64,000 nucleotides of DNA from a virus (IMGVR_UViG_3300012979_000036:1-64000), one strand, 5' to 3'; shown: positions 7,032 through 28,782, counted from the stretch's first letter. Made by a program: numbers and translations. Notes: generated by a model not told the origin, from the sequence alone.

Positions 7032-8018
7032 ATGTCATTTGGAAAATGCAACAAATCTATATGTCTAGATGACATATTAAATAAAGTAACTGAAGTGGAT
7101 ATACTAAATCATTATTTTGGTATATCCACTTTACCTATTTTAGTAAACAATCCATTACGAGCAGATAAGAATGCTTCTTTGAGTATATTTCTTAATGATA
7201 ATGATAATATAATTTTAAAAGATTTTGGATCATACAAATCTTATAATTTATGGTCATTTCTAATGGAATACTGGAATTTAGATTATGATAGTGTTCTTGA
7301 AAAAATTGTTAATGATTTAAAAGATATTAATAGTACACTATATCAATTAAAATCAAAGAAATACAAACAACAAATAAGAAGTAAATCTATTCTTGAATGC
7401 AAAGTAAGAGAATGGAAAGATTACGATTTACAATATTGGGAATCTTATGGTATATCTTTACCTTGGTTAAAGTTTGGAGAAGTATATCCTATTTCACATA
7501 CTTTTATAACTAAAGATAATAAAAGATATGCTTTTAGAGCAGAAAAATATGCTTATGCTTATGTAGAAAGAAAAGATAATATTGTCACATTAAAGATTTA
7601 TCAACCTAAAAGTTCAAATAGAAAATGGACTAATAGTGGTAATGCGTCTATATGGGATTTATGGTCACAATTACCTAAAGTAGGAGATAAATTATTTATT
7701 ACTTCTTCTAGAAAAGATGCTTTATGTTTATGGGAAAATACAATGATACCTGCTATTAGTATGCAAGGAGAAGGGTATATTCCTAAACAGTCTGTAATTG
7801 ATGAATTGAAATCTAGATTTAAAAATATTTATATATTTTTTGATAATGATTTTGATAAAGATGAAAATCACGGTAGACAATATGCACAATTTCTTTCAAA
7901 AACATTTGATATTCCTTATATAGAAATACCAAGTGAATATGAAGTAAAAGATCCATCAGATTTTGTAAATAAATACGGTAGAGAAAAACTAAAACAATTA
8001 GTAAACGAATTAATATGA
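7032..8018 (+). CDS. dnaG: DNA primase (TOPRIM)
   Basis: NPLRADKNAS N-terminus, ITSSRKD, FFDNDFD and KDPSDF TOPRIM motifs. Confidence 0.85.
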   Translation: MSFGKCNKSICLDDILNKVTEVDILNHYFGISTLPILVNNPLRADKNASLSIFLNDNDNIILKDFGSYKSYNLWSFLMEYWNLDYDSVLEKIVNDLKDINSTLYQLKSKKYKQQIRSKSILECKVREWKDYDLQYWESYGISLPWLKFGEVYPISHTFITKDNKRYAFRAEKYAYAYVERKDNIVTLKIYQPKSSNRKWTNSGNASIWDLWSQLPKVGDKLFITSSRKDALCLWENTMIPAISMQGEGYIPKQSVIDELKSRFKNIYIFFDNDFDKDENHGRQYAQFLSKTFDIPYIEIPSEYEVKDPSDFVNKYGREKLKQLVNELI

Positions 8019-8251
8019 AATACGGAAGACTTTTTAGAAATTATATAGAAGATTTCGCTCATACTCCATCTACAAATAGATGTAGTACATTGCCTTATAA
8101 AGAGTTGAAATTAATGGCTAAGAATATGTATCCTATTATCAAAGATGAAATTATCATTGATAATATTAATAACCCTTTGATAAATTATCAAAGAAAAAAT
8201 CAAGAAGAGCTTGCTATTTCAGTATATGAGGCTCTGAATTTAATGTATTAA
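8015..8251 (+). CDS. Hypothetical protein
   Basis: 78-aa ORF with ATGA overlap with primase. Confidence 0.65.
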   Translation: MKYGRLFRNYIEDFAHTPSTNRCSTLPYKELKLMAKNMYPIIKDEIIIDNINNPLINYQRKNQEELAISVYEALNLMY

Positions 8252-8262
8252 TATAATATGGT

Positions 8263-9060
8263 ATGAAGCATTTGATTGTAAGATCCAGGAATAAATCCTG
8301 TGCTCCATTAAGAGAACTTGAAGTGCCTATTACTACTATATATAGAATGGGCAGTACCACACCAACAGAACAAATTACAAAAAGAAAGAAATATATTGAA
8401 ATTAATTCTATAAACTCTTGTAAAATATCTGGAAATAAAATATTAATGAAGCGTAGAATTAGACACGCTCATTGTCCTACAGCTGAATATTTTGTAGGAA
8501 ACAATAATGAACAATCTTTTCTTGATATTTGTGAAAATAGACTTAACAAATGGAAGAATGGTATTATTGCTAAAAGAAAGAATTCTTCAAAAGGAGAAGG
8601 TTTAGCAAGACTTACTACAACAACAGATTGTTGGGAATTTTATTATGAAAATCAAGGAGATTTACATAATTGGATATTTGAAAGATATTATACTTATACA
8701 AAAGAATATAGAATTCATGTAACTAAAGACGGATGTTTTTATGCTACTAGGAAGATGTTGATTGAAGGGAAAGAAAATAGATGGCACAGACATGCTGATA
8801 ATTCAGTATTTATTCTTGAAAACAATGAGTTATTTGATAGACCAAGTAACTGGGAAGACATTGTTGAATCTTGCGTCAATGCTTTAAAAGCTATAGGATT
8901 AGATATAGCTTGCTTTGATGTTAAAGTTCAAAAAAATAATGTAGATTATCCTAAATACATATTACTTGAAAGTAATAGTGCTCCTTGTTTAAAAGATGTT
9001 GGTATTAATGCGTATAAAGAACAATTAAATAAATTGATTAATGCTAAATATAGATTTTAA
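8263..9060 (+). CDS. ATP-grasp ligase (RimK/YheCD-like)
   Basis: NKILMK, IIAKRKNSSKGEG, EYRIHV, DIACFDV and LLESNSAP (ExN) motifs. Confidence 0.85.
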   Translation: MKHLIVRSRNKSCAPLRELEVPITTIYRMGSTTPTEQITKRKKYIEINSINSCKISGNKILMKRRIRHAHCPTAEYFVGNNNEQSFLDICENRLNKWKNGIIAKRKNSSKGEGLARLTTTTDCWEFYYENQGDLHNWIFERYYTYTKEYRIHVTKDGCFYATRKMLIEGKENRWHRHADNSVFILENNELFDRPSNWEDIVESCVNALKAIGLDIACFDVKVQKNNVDYPKYILLESNSAPCLKDVGINAYKEQLNKLINAKYRF

Positions 9061-9793
9061 ATACCTTGAATTTTGGACTTATTATTCAAGTAAAGGCACA
9101 TTAGACAAAAAGTTAAAAAGAGAATGGTGTTTTAGTAATGTTTTTGGTGGATTAGAACATCAGAAAAATGAATATGTTTTATACATATATAACAATGGCC
9201 ATTTAACAAATAAAGATAATAATTGTCTTATAACAAAAGAGCAACTTATAGAACATATTAATGAAATTAATAAATTTTATAAGTTTAAATATAAGTTTAA
9301 GACTATTAAAGATGGCTACAAGTTAGAATTTACTATTGATGCACCAATAATGTATCATAAAATTATTTTATCTTGGTTAAGATATTCTTATGAATTTCCT
9401 TTTAATGTAACTCTATATGAATTATTTAAAGTAAGAGAAGAAAAAGGGTTTAAAAGACTTACAATGTTAAATCTTTTTAATCTTATAGGAGCAACAATGC
9501 ATTGTACAAAACATGGTACTAGCATTCATTCTATTGGAGTATTTTATGACTTTAAAGATTTAATATCTTATAAAGATTTTAAAAAGGAAATAACAAAAGA
9601 TATAAAAATAAATCCTAATATGCAAATTAATGATATATTAAATGTTGTAAATGAGGATGATTTTGATATTTTAGACTTACCTTTAGATAAGAGATTAAAT
9701 CATACTGACTATTGGGAAGACCAAGAAGAGTATAAGAAAAGACTTAAAGTTTATAAAAAGAATTTAAAAACCCTTAAAAACTATTATAAGTAA
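9041..9793 (+). CDS. Unknown protein embedded in the amide-ligase cluster
   Basis: 250-aa ORF overlapping the ATP-grasp stop and 1 nt from the GATase start. Confidence 0.8.
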   Translation: MLNIDFKYLEFWTYYSSKGTLDKKLKREWCFSNVFGGLEHQKNEYVLYIYNNGHLTNKDNNCLITKEQLIEHINEINKFYKFKYKFKTIKDGYKLEFTIDAPIMYHKIILSWLRYSYEFPFNVTLYELFKVREEKGFKRLTMLNLFNLIGATMHCTKHGTSIHSIGVFYDFKDLISYKDFKKEITKDIKINPNMQINDILNVVNEDDFDILDLPLDKRLNHTDYWEDQEEYKKRLKVYKKNLKTLKNYYK

Positions 9794-9794
9794 T

Positions 9795-10451
9795 ATGAAA
9801 AATGTATATGTAGTAGGAGAAGCAAAGCATTATGCTAATTTTATAACAGGTGTAAAACTTGTAGATACTTTGGAAAAAGCAGATATTGTTATTTTTACTG
9901 GTGGAGAAGATGTAGATCCTTCACTATATGGTGAAGAAAAGTATCAAGAGACTTTTTCAAATATAGAAAGAGATTTATATGAAAAATCTATATTTGAACA
10001 GATTAAACCTACTCAACTTGTAGTGGGTGTATGTCGTGGGTCTCAGTTTCTCTGTGTAATGAATGGGGGTAAATTAGTACAGCATTGTACTAATCATGGT
10101 ATTTGGGGTACACATCCTATATATTGTCCACATACAAATACTTTGTATGAAATTACATCTACTCATCATCAAATGCAGTATCCTTATAATCTTGATAAAA
10201 AAGATTATACAATATTAGCAATATCTCAGAATAACAGTTCTTATTGTTATGATGGAACAGGTATTGATGAAATGGAAATAGTTAGACATGGAGAACCTGA
10301 AATAGTATTATATCACAAAGAAGATACTCCTAGATGTATTGCTATTCAAGGTCATCCTGAATATATGAGAAAAGATGCTCCTGTAGTAAAGTATCTAAAT
10401 ACAATTATTAATGAAGAACTTAAAGAAATAAATAACTATGAGATTAAATAA
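9795..10451 (+). CDS. Class I glutamine amidotransferase / gamma-glutamyl hydrolase-like (Peptidase C26)
   Basis: TGGEDVDP oxyanion loop, GVCRGSQ nucleophile Cys, STHHQ, QGHPE (His-Glu of the triad). Confidence 0.92.
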   Translation: MKNVYVVGEAKHYANFITGVKLVDTLEKADIVIFTGGEDVDPSLYGEEKYQETFSNIERDLYEKSIFEQIKPTQLVVGVCRGSQFLCVMNGGKLVQHCTNHGIWGTHPIYCPHTNTLYEITSTHHQMQYPYNLDKKDYTILAISQNNSSYCYDGTGIDEMEIVRHGEPEIVLYHKEDTPRCIAIQGHPEYMRKDAPVVKYLNTIINEELKEINNYEIK

Positions 10452-11229
10452 CATTAAAGTAGGCGCAGATCCTGAACTTTTTATTATTAATAAGAATACT
10501 AATAAAGTAATATCTTCTATAGGCCTTATCCCTGGAGTAAAGGGAGAAGCCTATAGAGCACCAGATATGCCAAAAGGCTACGGATTACAGATAGATAATA
10601 TTTTAGCAGAATTCAATATTCCTGCTGTTAATAAAAAGGTAGATTTTATAAAAGCAATAACTTATATGCAGGATTATATTAGAGATTATGTTCAAAAAGT
10701 TAATCCTGAATTAGATATTCAATGTATTGCTTCTAGAGATGTAGATGAAGATCAACTTCAATCACCAGAAGCAAAACTATTTGGTTGTGATGTAAGTTAT
10801 AATGCTTATACAGAAGATGAGAATCCTAAACCAGACGGTGAAAGAGGCACACTTAGAAGTGCAGGATGTCATCTTCATATTTCATACAAAACACCTAACC
10901 CTGCAACATCTATTAAACTGATTAAATACTTGGATATGTATTTAGGAATTCCTTCAGTTATACTTGATCCAGATACTAAAAGAAGAACTCTTTATGGTAA
11001 AGCTGGAGACTTTAGGCTTAGGCATTATGGTTTAGAATACAGGTCATTAAGTAGTTATATGATGTCTTCTAAAGAACTTCTTACTTTTGTATGGGAAGGT
11101 TTAACAAAGGCTATAAAGGCTTATGAATTTAATTTACCTTTAATTGATTCTGATATAGTACAACATGTTATTAACAACAGTGATGTTGATAAAGCTAAAA
11201 TGTTGGTAAATGATTTTAATCTAATGTAA
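10438..11229 (+). CDS. phiEco32-like COOH-NH2 ligase type 2 (glutamine-synthetase-like fold)
   Basis: VGADPELF, DNILAEFN, FGCD, RSAGCHLH, R..YG.AG.FR and GLEYRSLS motifs. Confidence 0.9.
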   Translation: MRLNNIKVGADPELFIINKNTNKVISSIGLIPGVKGEAYRAPDMPKGYGLQIDNILAEFNIPAVNKKVDFIKAITYMQDYIRDYVQKVNPELDIQCIASRDVDEDQLQSPEAKLFGCDVSYNAYTEDENPKPDGERGTLRSAGCHLHISYKTPNPATSIKLIKYLDMYLGIPSVILDPDTKRRTLYGKAGDFRLRHYGLEYRSLSSYMMSSKELLTFVWEGLTKAIKAYEFNLPLIDSDIVQHVINNSDVDKAKMLVNDFNLM

Positions 11230-11231
11230 TT

Positions 11232-12614
11232 ATGTGTGGATTATTTGGCATTATTAATATAAAGAAATCTAAATTTGATAAAACCTTATTTAATGTTTTA
11301 GGTATTCAAAATGATTCCAGAGGAGGAGACTCCTGTGGAATCTTTATTGATGGTAAAACAGAGTATGGAGTAAATGACAAAAAATTATATTCAAAATTTT
11401 ATAAAACTAGTGAAGTTCTTAAAAATACAACAAAATGTAAAATTGCTTTAGGTCATTGTAGAAAAGCTTCAGTAGGTACAATAAACGAATCTACTGCTCA
11501 ACCTGTTGTTTTAAAAGATTCTGATGGTAATATAGAATTTGTAGTAATGCATAATGGTACTATATTTAATTATAAAGCATTAGCTCAGAAATATATACCA
11601 GATGTTGATATTACAAATTTAACAGACAGTCAAGTAATGGCTAGAATATTTTATCATAAAGGATATGACTGTCTTTCAGAATATTATGGAGGAGCAGTAT
11701 TTGTTATTGTAGACTATAGAAATAGAGATCCTAAAATAATGCTTTTTAAAGGTTGTTCTAAAAGCAATAGTTCATCTACAATACCTACAGAAGAAAGACC
11801 TTTTTATTTTGTACATTCAGATGATACTTTTATATTTTCTTCAATAGGTTCATTTCTAGCTGCTTCTACACCAGAAGAATCAGTTTGGACATTAAAACCA
11901 AATGAACTTATAGAAGTAAAGGGAGATGATATTTATATTGTTTCAGAACATCCAAGAGATAATGTTATGCAAACGCTTCCCAGTAATGTCTCTGCGGTCT
12001 ATTATAGAAACACATATGGATACTGTGATGACGACTTCTATGCTTGGGATAATTTCAATAAAAAACAAACTACTAAAGAAGTTGAAACTCCTTTTTCTTT
12101 AGAAGGTAAAACAATAAGAGTTACAACAGATGGTATTTATCATATTGACAATATACCAGCTCATGGTAAATTTATAATAGACTGTGATGGTAAGATATAT
12201 AATAATACAAAAGCTGGTACTAACTCTTATTGGTTTTGGGATGGTGTTTTGCTATATGGTAATGTAGAGTATATATACTTGCAAAATGCATGTAAACATT
12301 TTAGTTTATCTCATGAAGATATTAAATGGGTATGTCCTGAAATATTAAATTATTTAAGTCCTTATCCTATGTTAGATCCTGATTATATAGGAAATAATGA
12401 AGGAGATGTTTGGCTTAAATGTACTGATTTAAATACTTTCGTACCATATACAGGAAGTCTTCATAGACTTTTAGAAGGTAAATCTGAGTATTATAAAGAA
12501 GGACATTCAAATCATTCTATCTGGAAAGGTAAAACAGAAGCAGTGATTCGGTTTAATGACCTTTATAAGGCAAAAAAGATTAATTTTAGTCATCTTTATA
12601 AATTATTGAACTAA
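11232..12614 (+). CDS. Class II (Ntn) glutamine amidotransferase with an unrecognised C-terminal extension
   Basis: N-terminal MCGLFG, RGGDSCG, GHCRKAS, HNGTI and DSQ motifs. Confidence 0.92.
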   Translation: MCGLFGIINIKKSKFDKTLFNVLGIQNDSRGGDSCGIFIDGKTEYGVNDKKLYSKFYKTSEVLKNTTKCKIALGHCRKASVGTINESTAQPVVLKDSDGNIEFVVMHNGTIFNYKALAQKYIPDVDITNLTDSQVMARIFYHKGYDCLSEYYGGAVFVIVDYRNRDPKIMLFKGCSKSNSSSTIPTEERPFYFVHSDDTFIFSSIGSFLAASTPEESVWTLKPNELIEVKGDDIYIVSEHPRDNVMQTLPSNVSAVYYRNTYGYCDDDFYAWDNFNKKQTTKEVETPFSLEGKTIRVTTDGIYHIDNIPAHGKFIIDCDGKIYNNTKAGTNSYWFWDGVLLYGNVEYIYLQNACKHFSLSHEDIKWVCPEILNYLSPYPMLDPDYIGNNEGDVWLKCTDLNTFVPYTGSLHRLLEGKSEYYKEGHSNHSIWKGKTEAVIRFNDLYKAKKINFSHLYKLLN

Positions 12615-13888
12615 TGATTGTAGTTAACGAACAAACAAGAAAAAGAACTCATCTTTTCAAAACAATTAGAGGAATTGTTTATAAAGATGATAATTATATA
12701 GAATTTGGATATTTTATTCCTACTATTGATACTCTTATAACAGAATATAATGGTAAAATGTATTATGACATTAGAAAAGATTTAAAAGTAATGGAGGTTT
12801 TTTCAAAATTAGAAGGAACTAAAAAGTGTTTTCTAGAAGGCGATACTGCTAATATAGAAACACATTTAAATGTATTTGGAAATGGTAGATTTCCATATTT
12901 TATAGCAAGAGAATATGAAGCAGAACATTACATTGATATGTTTGAAGAAAAAGTAGAAGAGCAGTCTTCTATAAATTATCCTTATTCTAAAGATGTAAAA
13001 TATTCTTTTGGTATAGAGTTTGAAACAGCTGCAGGTTATTTACCTGAAAATAAATGTTTCGATTTAGGTCTTATTCCTCTTAGAGATGGTTCTATTAGTG
13101 GTATAGAATATTCTACAATTCCTCTTTATGGTAATGAAGGTTTAAATCTTTTGAAGAGACAACTTGATTGTTTAAAAGAATATACTTATACTAATAAAGA
13201 GTGTTCTACACATATTCATTTTGGAGGTTATCCTGTAGAAGAAAAAGCTATTTATATTTTATATAAATTGTGGTATTATATGCAATATAATATATTAGAT
13301 TATATTCCAACTTGGAGTTATTCTACTGGTAATTTTAAGAAGAATGAAAAGAACTATTGTGATACTGTTCCTGACTTTGATGATTTCAAAAATTTATATA
13401 GATTTTATGCTTGTCAGAGTTATATGGGAGATTTGTATCAACCTCATCCATGTGATATAGAAAAAAGAGCTAAATGGAATATTAAAACCAGATATTATAA
13501 CTGCAATTTTATAAATATGTTGTGTTATAATGCTGCTAAAACAGTAGAATTTAGATTTCTTACTCCTACATATAGTTTTGAAAAACTATCGACATTCATT
13601 TTGATGTTTAATGCTATCTTGAAAAAAGCAGAAAGTATTTATAAAGAATATAAAGATAAATCTTATACTGCTATTAATGGTTATTTTTATACTAAATATG
13701 ATGAAGGTTTGTTAGATATAAAACACATAGTTAAAGAAGTGTGTGACAACACTACTTCTGATTATGTATTAAATAATATGAAGAAGCTTATTTGGCTAAA
13801 ACAAACACAACAAAATGTAGGAGATTATAATGGTGGCAGATTAGACATAGAAAATAGATATTTTCCAGATGGAAAACAAGAAAATTAA
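12614..13888 (+). CDS. Putative amidoligase (Amidoligase_2-like)
   Basis: FGIEFET, RDGSI..IEY, CSTHIHFG and KTVEFR motifs. Confidence 0.88.
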   Translation: MIVVNEQTRKRTHLFKTIRGIVYKDDNYIEFGYFIPTIDTLITEYNGKMYYDIRKDLKVMEVFSKLEGTKKCFLEGDTANIETHLNVFGNGRFPYFIAREYEAEHYIDMFEEKVEEQSSINYPYSKDVKYSFGIEFETAAGYLPENKCFDLGLIPLRDGSISGIEYSTIPLYGNEGLNLLKRQLDCLKEYTYTNKECSTHIHFGGYPVEEKAIYILYKLWYYMQYNILDYIPTWSYSTGNFKKNEKNYCDTVPDFDDFKNLYRFYACQSYMGDLYQPHPCDIEKRAKWNIKTRYYNCNFINMLCYNAAKTVEFRFLTPTYSFEKLSTFILMFNAILKKAESIYKEYKDKSYTAINGYFYTKYDEGLLDIKHIVKEVCDNTTSDYVLNNMKKLIWLKQTQQNVGDYNGGRLDIENRYFPDGKQEN

Positions 13889-27835: not shown

Positions 27836-28782
27836 TGAAATTAATTGAAAGTTCTTATGAAATAATTCCTCAAGATGTAGGTCTTGAGGGAGTACTTAAA
27901 CAAATAGAAATAGCAGCTCGTAATTGTTATAAAAGTGAGGCTTTTATTAAAGAAGGTTCTGCTGAAAAAATGGTTAATGCTCTTATTAAAAGAGGACATG
28001 GTAGCCCACTTGAACATGGTACTGTTTATTTGCATTTTAAATATAACTCTCCCGTTAATGATATTAATTATTTAGAATATACAAAAATAGAGAGATTTTA
28101 TAGAAACAATCCTTATTCTAAAGTTGTTAATAGGACAGAAGATCATTTTAATCACGATATTTATATAACTTCTAATTATAGAGTGTTAATAGAACACAAT
28201 AGATTAAGTGATTTAAAATATATATGTGAGCCAACAGAATACCATAAGAAAAGATATACTGTTAGATTTGTATGTTCTAGAAGTGTATCTCATGAAATAG
28301 TGAGACATAGATCCATGAGTTTTTGCCAAGAATCCCAACGTTATGTTAATTACTCTCTTGACAAATTTGGTAATGAAATAACTTATATACTACCAAAATG
28401 GGCTATTGATAGAACAAATGATACAGCAGAAACATATGATCCATTAACTGGTTTTAGAAGAGATTATCTAATGGATATGCCTATTTTAGAAGCTGTAACT
28501 AAACATATGGTTTGTGAAGATAGAGCTATTTCTAATTGGATAGATTCTTTGAAAAAAGCAGAATCAGATTATTTCTATTTATTATGTGATGAATGCGGTT
28601 TAAAACCAGAAGAAGCTAGAGGAGTACTTCCTAATGATTGTAAAACAGATATTATAGTAACAGGTTTTGCAAGTGATTGGGTACATTTCTTTAAACTTAG
28701 AACTGCTAATGGAGCACATCCTGATATGAGAAATCTTGCTTGTCCATTAGAAGCAGAATTTAAACTTAAAGGGTTTATTTAA
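27835..28782 (+). CDS. thyX: Flavin-dependent thymidylate synthase
   Basis: GHGSPLEH, RSVSHEIVRHR, FCQESQRY, EEARGVLP, FFKLR and AHPDMR motifs. Confidence 0.95.
   Translation: MKLIESSYEIIPQDVGLEGVLKQIEIAARNCYKSEAFIKEGSAEKMVNALIKRGHGSPLEHGTVYLHFKYNSPVNDINYLEYTKIERFYRNNPYSKVVNRTEDHFNHDIYITSNYRVLIEHNRLSDLKYICEPTEYHKKRYTVRFVCSRSVSHEIVRHRSMSFCQESQRYVNYSLDKFGNEITYILPKWAIDRTNDTAETYDPLTGFRRDYLMDMPILEAVTKHMVCEDRAISNWIDSLKKAESDYFYLLCDECGLKPEEARGVLPNDCKTDIIVTGFASDWVHFFKLRTANGAHPDMRNLACPLEAEFKLKGFI

Follow-up and report, generated by a model that had tools for sequence, protein, structure and literature searches.

A phage gene cassette built around amide-bond-forming ligases was predicted from genome sequences in 2009 by Iyer, Abhiman, Burroughs and Aravind (Mol BioSyst; PMC3268129), according to the papers that cite their work, and publications from 2023-2025 still refer to this prediction (PMC10580990, PMC11706807). 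In the literature up to 2026 we found no product assigned to the cassette, in agreement with an earlier note on the DNA studied here. This DNA is a 64,000-nucleotide stretch (IMGVR_UViG_3300012979_000036:1-64000; hereafter the window) from an uncultured, low-GC (~28%) crAss-like phage, whose whole source record comprises 76 kb and is ~75% complete. Within a long replication-gene array, positions 8263-13888 of the window carry six genes, g1 to g6, which the earlier note had put forward as an uncharacterised biological system. We identify them as a crAss-lineage version of the amidoligase cassette carried by phiEco32, LUZ24 and PA11, a kind of system already predicted in 2009 and known without its product. 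Kinship with phiEco32-type clusters and presence in crAss-like genomes, both proposed previously, were borne out: the gene set was identified in phiEco32, TL (LUZ24-like), LAh_9, 7-11, Vp_R1, O4, Vibrio phage 1.262.O and cr108_1, with crAss-like carriers including cr108_1, ctelJ1 and dozens of contigs from IMG/VR. Based on Pfam and PHROG profile searches, motif reading, homologue alignments and predicted structures, we consider it probable that this accessory module of the replication array assembles, in the cytoplasm, a small compound joined by amide bonds or a short peptide, with glutamate or glutamine at its centre.

Comparison with described cassettes places the window among them by content and sets it apart by order. 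The "long" type found in phiEco32, the LUZ24-PaP3-TL phages, LAh_9, 7-11 and Vp_R1 shares with the window a COOH-NH2 ligase type 2, an Amidoligase_2, a class II glutamine amidotransferase (GATase) and an ATP-grasp ligase, encoded by co-directional and tightly packed genes together with fast-evolving partner proteins. Its gene order, hypA-hypB-ligase-phrog_4877-amidoligase-GATase-small open reading frame (ORF)-ATP-grasp, with or without a terminal gamma-glutamyl cyclotransferase (GGCT), differs from that of the window, and its class II GATases (540-850 amino acids) and ATP-grasp proteins (300-750 amino acids) are long, whereas the corresponding enzymes of the window are short. Conversely, the window encodes a class I GATase-fold enzyme of the Peptidase_C26 type (hereafter C26), which was lacking from the long-type loci examined, and possesses neither phrog_4877 nor GGCT; GGCT was also not seen in the phiEco32 and 7-11 loci examined. 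The compact type of PA11/O4/TC6 (Paundecimvirus), Citrobacter phage CVT22 and Vibrio phage 1.262.O combines, like the window, an ATP-grasp protein of ~250 amino acids and a C26-type class I GATase with a class II GATase of 400-480 amino acids, a COOH-NH2 ligase and an amidoligase. Unlike the window, however, it has a different gene order and a protein of ~185 amino acids between ligase and amidoligase, and neither the g2 family nor the C-terminal domain of g5 was detected in it. The crAss form is thus compact-type in content but distinct in gene order and in partner family.

Among GenBank phages, the sole relative at the DNA level was cr108_1 (MT774385; Steigviridae, Pipoluvirus), in which the cassette likewise follows the primase gene in the same order. 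Sequence identities to the window amount to 41-49% for g1, g3, g4 and g6, and to 38% over the N-terminal domain of g5, and the cr108_1 genes are already annotated as ATP-grasp, amidotransferase, COOH-NH2 ligase and glutamine amidotransferase. In contrast to the single g2 of the window, cr108_1 carries two g2 paralogues (329 and 300 amino acids), and its cassette is followed by a UDG gene rather than the DUF1064 gene of the window. Metagenomic relatives, denoted here by L numbers as are the other loci compared, include L005 and L007 (46-49% identity) and L015-L017 (~40%), all with the genes and order of the window.

All six ORFs of the window are intact and co-directional on the plus strand, with successive junctions from g1 to g6 of -20, +1, -14, +2 and -1 nucleotides, matching exactly the coordinates and packing originally reported. 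Of the three predicted ATP-dependent carboxylate-amine ligases, the product of g1 (8263-9060; 265 amino acids) corresponds to a minimal ATP-grasp enzyme of the RimK/cyanophycin-synthetase kind. As a single sequence it scored under the cut-off of PF14397 (21.6 bits), a model matched by 8 of the 12 members of its family, and it matched phrog_2599 at 1e-17. A profile constructed from 12 homologues recovered from the PDB cyanophycin synthetase (9e-8) and RimK (3e-4), and also alpha-L-glutamate ligase and Ddl. The glycine-rich SSKGxG loop is present and the Mg/ATP motifs are invariant, the invariant positions being K59, G111, E148, R150, K164, D219, E236 and N238, with the last two forming an E236-x-N238 motif. 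Separately, a 344-amino-acid protein encoded upstream in L021 was found to share with the ATP-grasp profile only an SSKG-like loop (6.9% probability).

The remaining two ligases are predicted to be related to glutamine synthetase (GS) and gamma-glutamylcysteine ligase (GCL). The product of g4 (10438-11229; 263 amino acids), assigned to COOH-NH2 ligase type 2, a family with a GS/GCL-like fold, matched PF14395 (COOH-NH2_lig) at 50.4 bits (cut-off 25) and phrog_3815 at 1e-62; residues D53, E58, H145, H147, R182, R193, E200 and R202 are invariant among its homologues. The product of g6 (12614-13888; 424 amino acids) comprises an Amidoligase_2 core, a GS-like carboxylate-amine ligase domain at ~130-350, and a conserved N-terminal extension at 1-125. 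Its own score against PF12224 (Amidoligase_2) was 21.5 bits, just under the cut-off of 22, and it matched phrog_2443 at 3e-14. A total of 539 homologue clusters were identified for g6. All 30 of the aligned homologues matched PF12224 (best 1.4e-9), and alignment with hhalign to phiEco32/LUZ24-type amidoligases gave 68% probability, with an E-value of 5e-5 over 186 columns. Invariant residues E135, E137, H200, H202, R293, E312 and R314 make up its E-x-E, H-x-H, R and E-F-R motifs. The possibility that the N-terminus of g6 represents a fused phrog_4877 protein was rejected: hhalign assigned it 0.5% probability, and phrog_4877 was not found in the record in a search made without a positive control.

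Two predicted thiol hydrolases, both of which would bind glutamine or a gamma-glutamyl moiety, are interspersed among the ligases. The first, encoded by g3 (9795-10451; 218 amino acids), is a Cys-His-Glu enzyme of class I GATase fold, matching PF07722 (Peptidase_C26) at 2.2e-15 (57.5 bits, cut-off 20.5), phrog_7218 at 9e-31, and PF00117 (GATase) below its cut-off of 22.8 (5e-4, 20.2 bits). Its triad motifs, GVCRG and GHPE, are common to tunnelling GATases and free-standing hydrolases, and hence do not discriminate between them. The nearest solved proteins, Lin1909 (3fij; 5.6e-6), PuuD (6vtv) and 7d4r, constitute the group of free-standing gamma-glutamyl hydrolases, and on sequence grounds g3 is better read as a gamma-glutamyl hydrolase than as a class I amidotransferase. 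In one related locus (L032:5001-7990), our hidden Markov models (HMMs) identified a series of C26-orphan-C26-orphan-C26 upstream of the ligase, which may correspond to a duplicated g2-g3 pair or to a split C26 gene.

The second, encoded by g5 (11232-12614), consists of a class II GATase domain of the N-terminal nucleophile (Ntn) type, a linker and a lineage-specific C-terminal domain. The protein begins with MCGLFG, in which Cys2 is the predicted nucleophile; Arg30, Arg77, Asn108-Gly109 and Asp132 align with the glutamine-site residues of PurF, and Pfam identifies GATase_6 and GATase_7 (PF13522, PF13537) at the N-terminus. In the AlphaFold model (predicted local distance difference test, pLDDT, 79.6), residues 2-243 match PurF, GlmS, AsnB, TsnB9 and EgtC with VIA Z scores of 18-21, such that the likeness to the hydrolase EgtC is about equal to that to true amidotransferases, and no recognisable synthase domain was found in the protein. 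Residues 251-288 form a disordered linker leading to a confidently modelled C-terminal domain of ~170 residues (~290-460), which was found only in g5's own architecture (13 clusters) and which returned only template-modelling (TM) scores below 0.3 from the ESM Atlas. Either g3 or g5 could be cutting gamma-glutamyl amides. The three amide-ligase folds and two GATase-type folds with intact motifs noted earlier are therefore upheld by the profile matches and invariant catalytic residues, and the claim that g3 and g5 constitute two ammonia donors is not supported, given the closeness of g3 to gamma-glutamyl hydrolases, the missing synthase domain of g5 and its EgtC-like character.

The gene previously set aside as an orphan, g2 (9041-9793; 250 amino acids), proved to belong to a crAss-lineage family of considerable size. 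We found no Pfam or PHROG family for it, and a tblastn search of GenBank phage records returned no match. Nevertheless, 48 close homologue clusters were identified, and the broader family comprises 453 cluster representatives at 50% identity (E<=1e-3). The AlphaFold2 model of g2 (pLDDT 90.4; predicted TM score 0.90) matched in BFVD a pair of paralogues from cr108_1 and another pair from the crAss-like virus ctelJ1 (E 1.7e-9 to 6e-6), and a broad g2 profile recovered the cr108_1 pair at 1e-18 and 3.5e-17. What had appeared as a single orphan slot is thus filled by a large, so far nameless protein family, for which we suggest a role as a lineage-specific partner protein. Residues H106, K107, R114, Y115, E118, N122, N144, N147 and H163 are its invariant polar positions, suggestive of a putative binding or active site; few acidic residues are invariant in the family.

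Searches for a fold relative of g2 yielded a lead rather than a finding. Foldseek against the PDB (E<=0.001) returned nothing, and no usable match was obtained from the ESM Atlas. An exhaustive VIA search gave Z scores of 2.9-4.0, below the tool's noise level (PafA 4.0, Dop 3.9), among which all the long alignments (138-172 residues, with Z below noise) were to GS/GCL-fold ligases, namely PafA, Dop, GshF, GshA and glutamine synthetases. On the predicted model, then, a GS/GCL-like fold is conceivable. Comparison by hhalign of the g2 family to g4, g6 and the hypA/hypB proteins of phiEco32, TL, LAh_9, O4, 7-11, Vp_R1 and 1.262.O produced nothing, using a method of low power that also misses the link between g4 and g6. 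Weak BFVD matches (probability 0.3-0.93, TM 0.26-0.37) were to unnamed proteins of the Aeromonas phages LAh_6, LAh_8 and 4_4572, Cronobacter phage GAP52 and Pseudomonas phage PaP4. It is conceivable that g2 is the counterpart of hypA/hypB in other cassettes. In L006 (5922-7050), three small ORFs, one of the Zn_ribbon_IS1595 type, lie between a g2 homologue (34% identical) and the C26 gene.

To place the window in a wider context, homologues of g4 were used to survey IMG/VR. An alignment-based scan identified at least 564 g4-homologue loci, where a single-protein g4 search had found nothing, and the best 80 of these were examined with our own HMMs; 53 of the 80 have at least 5 kb on both flanks. 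A class II GATase and an Amidoligase_2 occur alongside the COOH-NH2 ligase in every one of these 53 well-flanked loci, with ATP-grasp detected in 40, C26 in 45 and the g2 family in 35, and with the gene order of the window in ~35. Relatives at 40-50% identity keep both the order and the integrity of the genes. GGCT was identified in 17 of the 53 loci, and C26 or GGCT in 50. The earlier observation that GGCT is not visible inside the cluster held, and extends to the whole 76-kb record (~75% complete), in which PF06094 was not found under conditions where positive controls were detected. It does not hold for the cassette at large, in that window-type loci such as L034, L044, L045, L054 and L058 carry GGCT immediately upstream of ATP-grasp, which makes it a member of the cassette in these sister lineages. 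A model in which C26 and GGCT replace one another was rejected, both being carried by 12 of the 53 loci and by several GenBank phages. Among about 50,700 GenBank phage records, 317 possess the COOH-NH2 ligase, with C26 present in 62 and GGCT in 154.

A number of related loci display apparent breaks in cassette genes, which are group I introns and not signs of decay. In g4 two distinct insertion sites were identified, one at G198|L199 (YG|LEYR) in L008-L010 and one at G143|C144 (SAG|CHLH) in L072, L082 and L096; g3 is interrupted at G82|S83 (GVCRG|S) in L015, L016, L022 and L044, and g6 at R293|Y294 (KTR|YY) in L022, L028 and L072, with the exons intact at every break. The corresponding gaps map to L008:7988-8291, L009:7986-9000, L010:2375-3390 and near 8432-9577 in L082 and L096 for g4; to L016:5503-6494, L015:5431-6422 and L044:6623-7618 for g3; and to L028:10999-11846 for g6, with two gaps each in L072 (8429-9599 and 12182-12490) and L022 (6618-7631 and 11019-11491). 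Rfam group I intron models scored 88.3 and 50.8 bits for the g6 gaps of L072 and L022, 39.8 bits for the g4 gap of L008, and 39 and 36 bits for g3 gaps; the Rfam gathering threshold missed the introns of L008-L010, which were detected in E-value mode. Some of the introns carry LAGLIDADG or other ORFs, and none is present in the cassette genes of the window itself. Homing introns inserted at the most conserved catalytic motifs indicate that g3, g4 and g6 are conserved and in use. Pseudogenisation and loss of linkage, looked for in these relatives, were not apparent: linkage is kept and decay was not seen.

Together, these findings suggest that the most likely function of the cassette is to build, and to trim, a small cytoplasmic amide or peptide that is of gamma-glutamyl type or derived from glutamine. 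Established routes of gamma-glutamyl chemistry include GshA/GshB/GGCT of the glutathione cycle, PuuA/PuuD, EgtA/EgtC, and BtrJ/BtrG of butirosin synthesis. As in the cassette, a GS/GCL-fold or ATP-grasp ligase of these cellular pathways installs an amide which a C26, Ntn or GGCT enzyme removes, and sequence and structure searches with g3 and g5 had PuuD and EgtC among their matches. Unlike the components of the cellular pathways, the phage proteins are not orthologues, and the phage possesses three ligases as well as extra phage-only proteins. By analogy, one of the GS-like ligases might form a gamma-glutamyl-amine bond, as do GshA, YbdK and PuuA, following which the ATP-grasp enzyme might extend a free carboxylate with an amino acid in the manner of GshB or RimK. 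The second GS-like ligase could then add another unit, or amidate a carboxylate with ammonia released by its neighbour g5, the Ntn glutaminase. The genes g5 and g6 are adjacent with a 1-nucleotide overlap in the window, and adjacent in most layouts, an arrangement which suggests, and does not show, a glutamine-dependent amide synthetase. The C26 enzyme, aided by GGCT in relatives, would remove or recycle the gamma-glutamyl group, which would accordingly serve as a transient handle, or belong to a product that is turned over. As acceptor, a free metabolite, a protein or another kind of molecule is conceivable.

Several observations weigh against this proposal. Every chemical step is predicted from family membership, and no product, substrate or phenotype has been reported for any cassette member. 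For PF14395 and PF12224 we found no solved or characterised member detectable by sequence, and function is assigned neither to the C-terminal domain of g5 nor to the N-terminal domain of g6, nor to any part of g2. The 80 loci surveyed were the best matches to the query and thus a sample biased towards relatives, among which the HMM used did not detect ATP-grasp in 13 of the 53 well-flanked loci. Furthermore, the class II GATase of phage TL (L003:7505-8606) is annotated not as one coding sequence but as two misc_features, an N-terminal part of 255 amino acids and a C-terminal part, and is possibly a frameshifted or broken copy; its division into two fragments implies that the cassette tolerates damage in at least one phage.

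Alternative roles differ chiefly in what the product would be attached to. The ligases might place glutamate-type residues or a short peptide on a host or phage protein, with C26 and GGCT trimming the tag and g2 serving as a target-recognition subunit or as the substrate itself. Such modifications are made by RimK on ribosomal protein S6, by PafA on Pup targets and by LysX on LysW. Among the solved proteins closest to g1 are RimK and cyanophycin synthetase, both of which lengthen a polypeptide at a carboxylate, and g2 is fast-evolving, lineage-specific and present in one or two copies per cassette, as would be expected of a specificity factor. Weak fold matches of g2 to PafA (Z 4.0) and Dop (Z 3.9), both protein ligases, point in the same direction but lie below the noise level of the tool, and the characterised relatives of GGCT and C26 act on small gamma-glutamyl amides. 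No candidate acceptor protein was found conserved across cassette types, and we regard protein tagging as unlikely, if worth keeping in view; peptide modification of proteins was also considered by Iyer et al. in 2009, as quoted in later papers. Attachment of an amino-acid-derived group to a base or nucleotide, allowing evasion of host nucleases, would accord with the genes for replication and nucleotide metabolism that surround the cassette in the window, cr108_1, L016, L017 and LUZ24-type phages, and amidoligases and amidotransferases have been described near thymidine-hypermodification genes in viromes (Lee et al. 2021). In the 165-177-kb relatives, however, the cassette adjoins glucosaminidase, DUF6717 and Band_7 genes instead of replication genes, and none of the six proteins contains a recognisable DNA-binding or nucleotide-binding domain. 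The 76-kb record (~75% complete) yielded no ThyA-type deoxyuridine monophosphate hydroxymethylase (PF00303) in a search that detected its controls, and encodes instead a normal ThyX (PF02511), the flavin-dependent thymidylate synthase, at 27898-28761 of the window, matched in two pieces (28.4 and 100.6 bits) within one open frame of 317 amino acids. Homologues of the M6 glycine:DNA transferase (an amino acid:DNA transferase, aGPT-Pplase) and of the 5-hydroxymethyldeoxyuridine DNA kinase, for which M6 gp51 and gp54 served as queries, were also not detected by single-sequence searches of low power and without a positive control. A nucleic-acid target is, in our estimation, very unlikely.

The proposal that peptidoglycan precursors or other polymers of the envelope receive the product, with envelope modification or superinfection exclusion as the outcome, is attributed by later papers to Iyer et al. 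2009 and cited as a standing hypothesis (PMC10580990, PMC11706807). Related chemistry is indeed used by cytoplasmic enzymes of peptidoglycan-precursor synthesis (Ddl, the Mur ligases, MurT/GatD), and Ddl was among the PDB matches of g1. Yet hydrophobic segments or signal peptides were identified in none of the six proteins, all of which look soluble from their sequences, and a membrane, secretion or lipid-carrier component is absent from the set. In addition, carriers of the cassette infect hosts with very different envelopes, spanning Bacteroidota, Proteobacteria and, per PMC11706807 and PMC10580990, the hosts of archaeal Poseidoniales viruses and a mycobacteriophage. An envelope target, which the earlier note had entertained, is thus not favoured, and we would give it only a slim chance. 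A contribution to auxiliary nitrogen or glutamine metabolism, in which the enzymes would raise the host's incorporation of ammonia into amino acids (the role suggested for phage ZRK32), draws on the growth stimulation obtained with a preparation of a cassette-bearing phage and so interpreted (PMC10945688), an experiment which did not test the cassette genes. The ligases are not orthologues of housekeeping glutamine synthetase or of glutathione enzymes, PF14395 and PF12224 are separate families for which no solved relative was found, and a seven-component, phage-restricted and fast-evolving cassette with lineage-specific partners is unlike a metabolic booster; this explanation seems to us highly improbable. 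Finally, the cassette might make a novel phage product, such as an amidated gamma-glutamyl peptide or amide serving as an anti-immunity decoy, signal or inhibitor, or an amino-acid-derived nucleotide or nucleic-acid adduct, for which g2, possibly a degenerate GS/PafA-like fold, would select the acceptor. We hold this to be distinctly doubtful. Synthesis of a small gamma-glutamyl or glutamine-derived compound is the preferred explanation. The observations of the earlier note are confirmed and its interpretation is partly supported.

The surroundings of the cassette are consistent with an accessory module. Upstream, the primase gene (7032-8018) is followed by an ORF encoding 78 amino acids (8015-8251), separated from g1 by an 11-nucleotide gap; downstream, g6 overlaps a DUF1064 nuclease-like gene by 20 nucleotides. 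Because tight coupling continues past both edges, the six genes represent a functional block within a longer co-directional array and not a separate operon, and a scan of the locus for sigma-70 promoters and terminators gave a result no better than shuffled sequences. The 78-amino-acid ORF, for which no family match was obtained, is kept in the close relatives L005-L009 and L016 (L006 included) at 38-63% identity, and was not detected in cr108_1. Homologues of the neighbouring primase occur in 146 phage records, including 31 named "Bacteroides" and 55 named "uncultured", whereas neither name is among the ten commonest of the records possessing the ligase; in Bacteroides phage DAC15 (L101:6033-10959), five unrelated hypothetical genes encoding 246-394 amino acids occupy the position after the primase. 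The cassette is therefore sporadic within Crassvirales, an accessory module, and the post-primase site may be a hotspot for such modules in Steigviridae. Cassette-bearing IMG/VR contigs of 165-177 kb also possess a transfer-messenger RNA gene (97 and 66 bits) and tRNA arrays a few kb upstream of the cassette (L028:1870-7250; L072:158-5500; L022:1150-4480).

The window thus reveals no new kind of system, and demonstrates the cassette as an accessory module in crAss-like phages. The targeting of at least three of its genes by homing group I introns at catalytic motifs provides independent evidence of site conservation and gene use. Versions carried by E. coli and Pseudomonas phages are far more tractable experimentally than this uncultured phage. 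Should the cassette make a novel product, the crAss form would connect a pathway that is widespread in phages, and still unsolved, with the group of viruses most abundant in the human gut. Given that the cassette is among the most widespread phage enzyme sets still without a known product, solving that product would open a new chapter in phage-host biochemistry.

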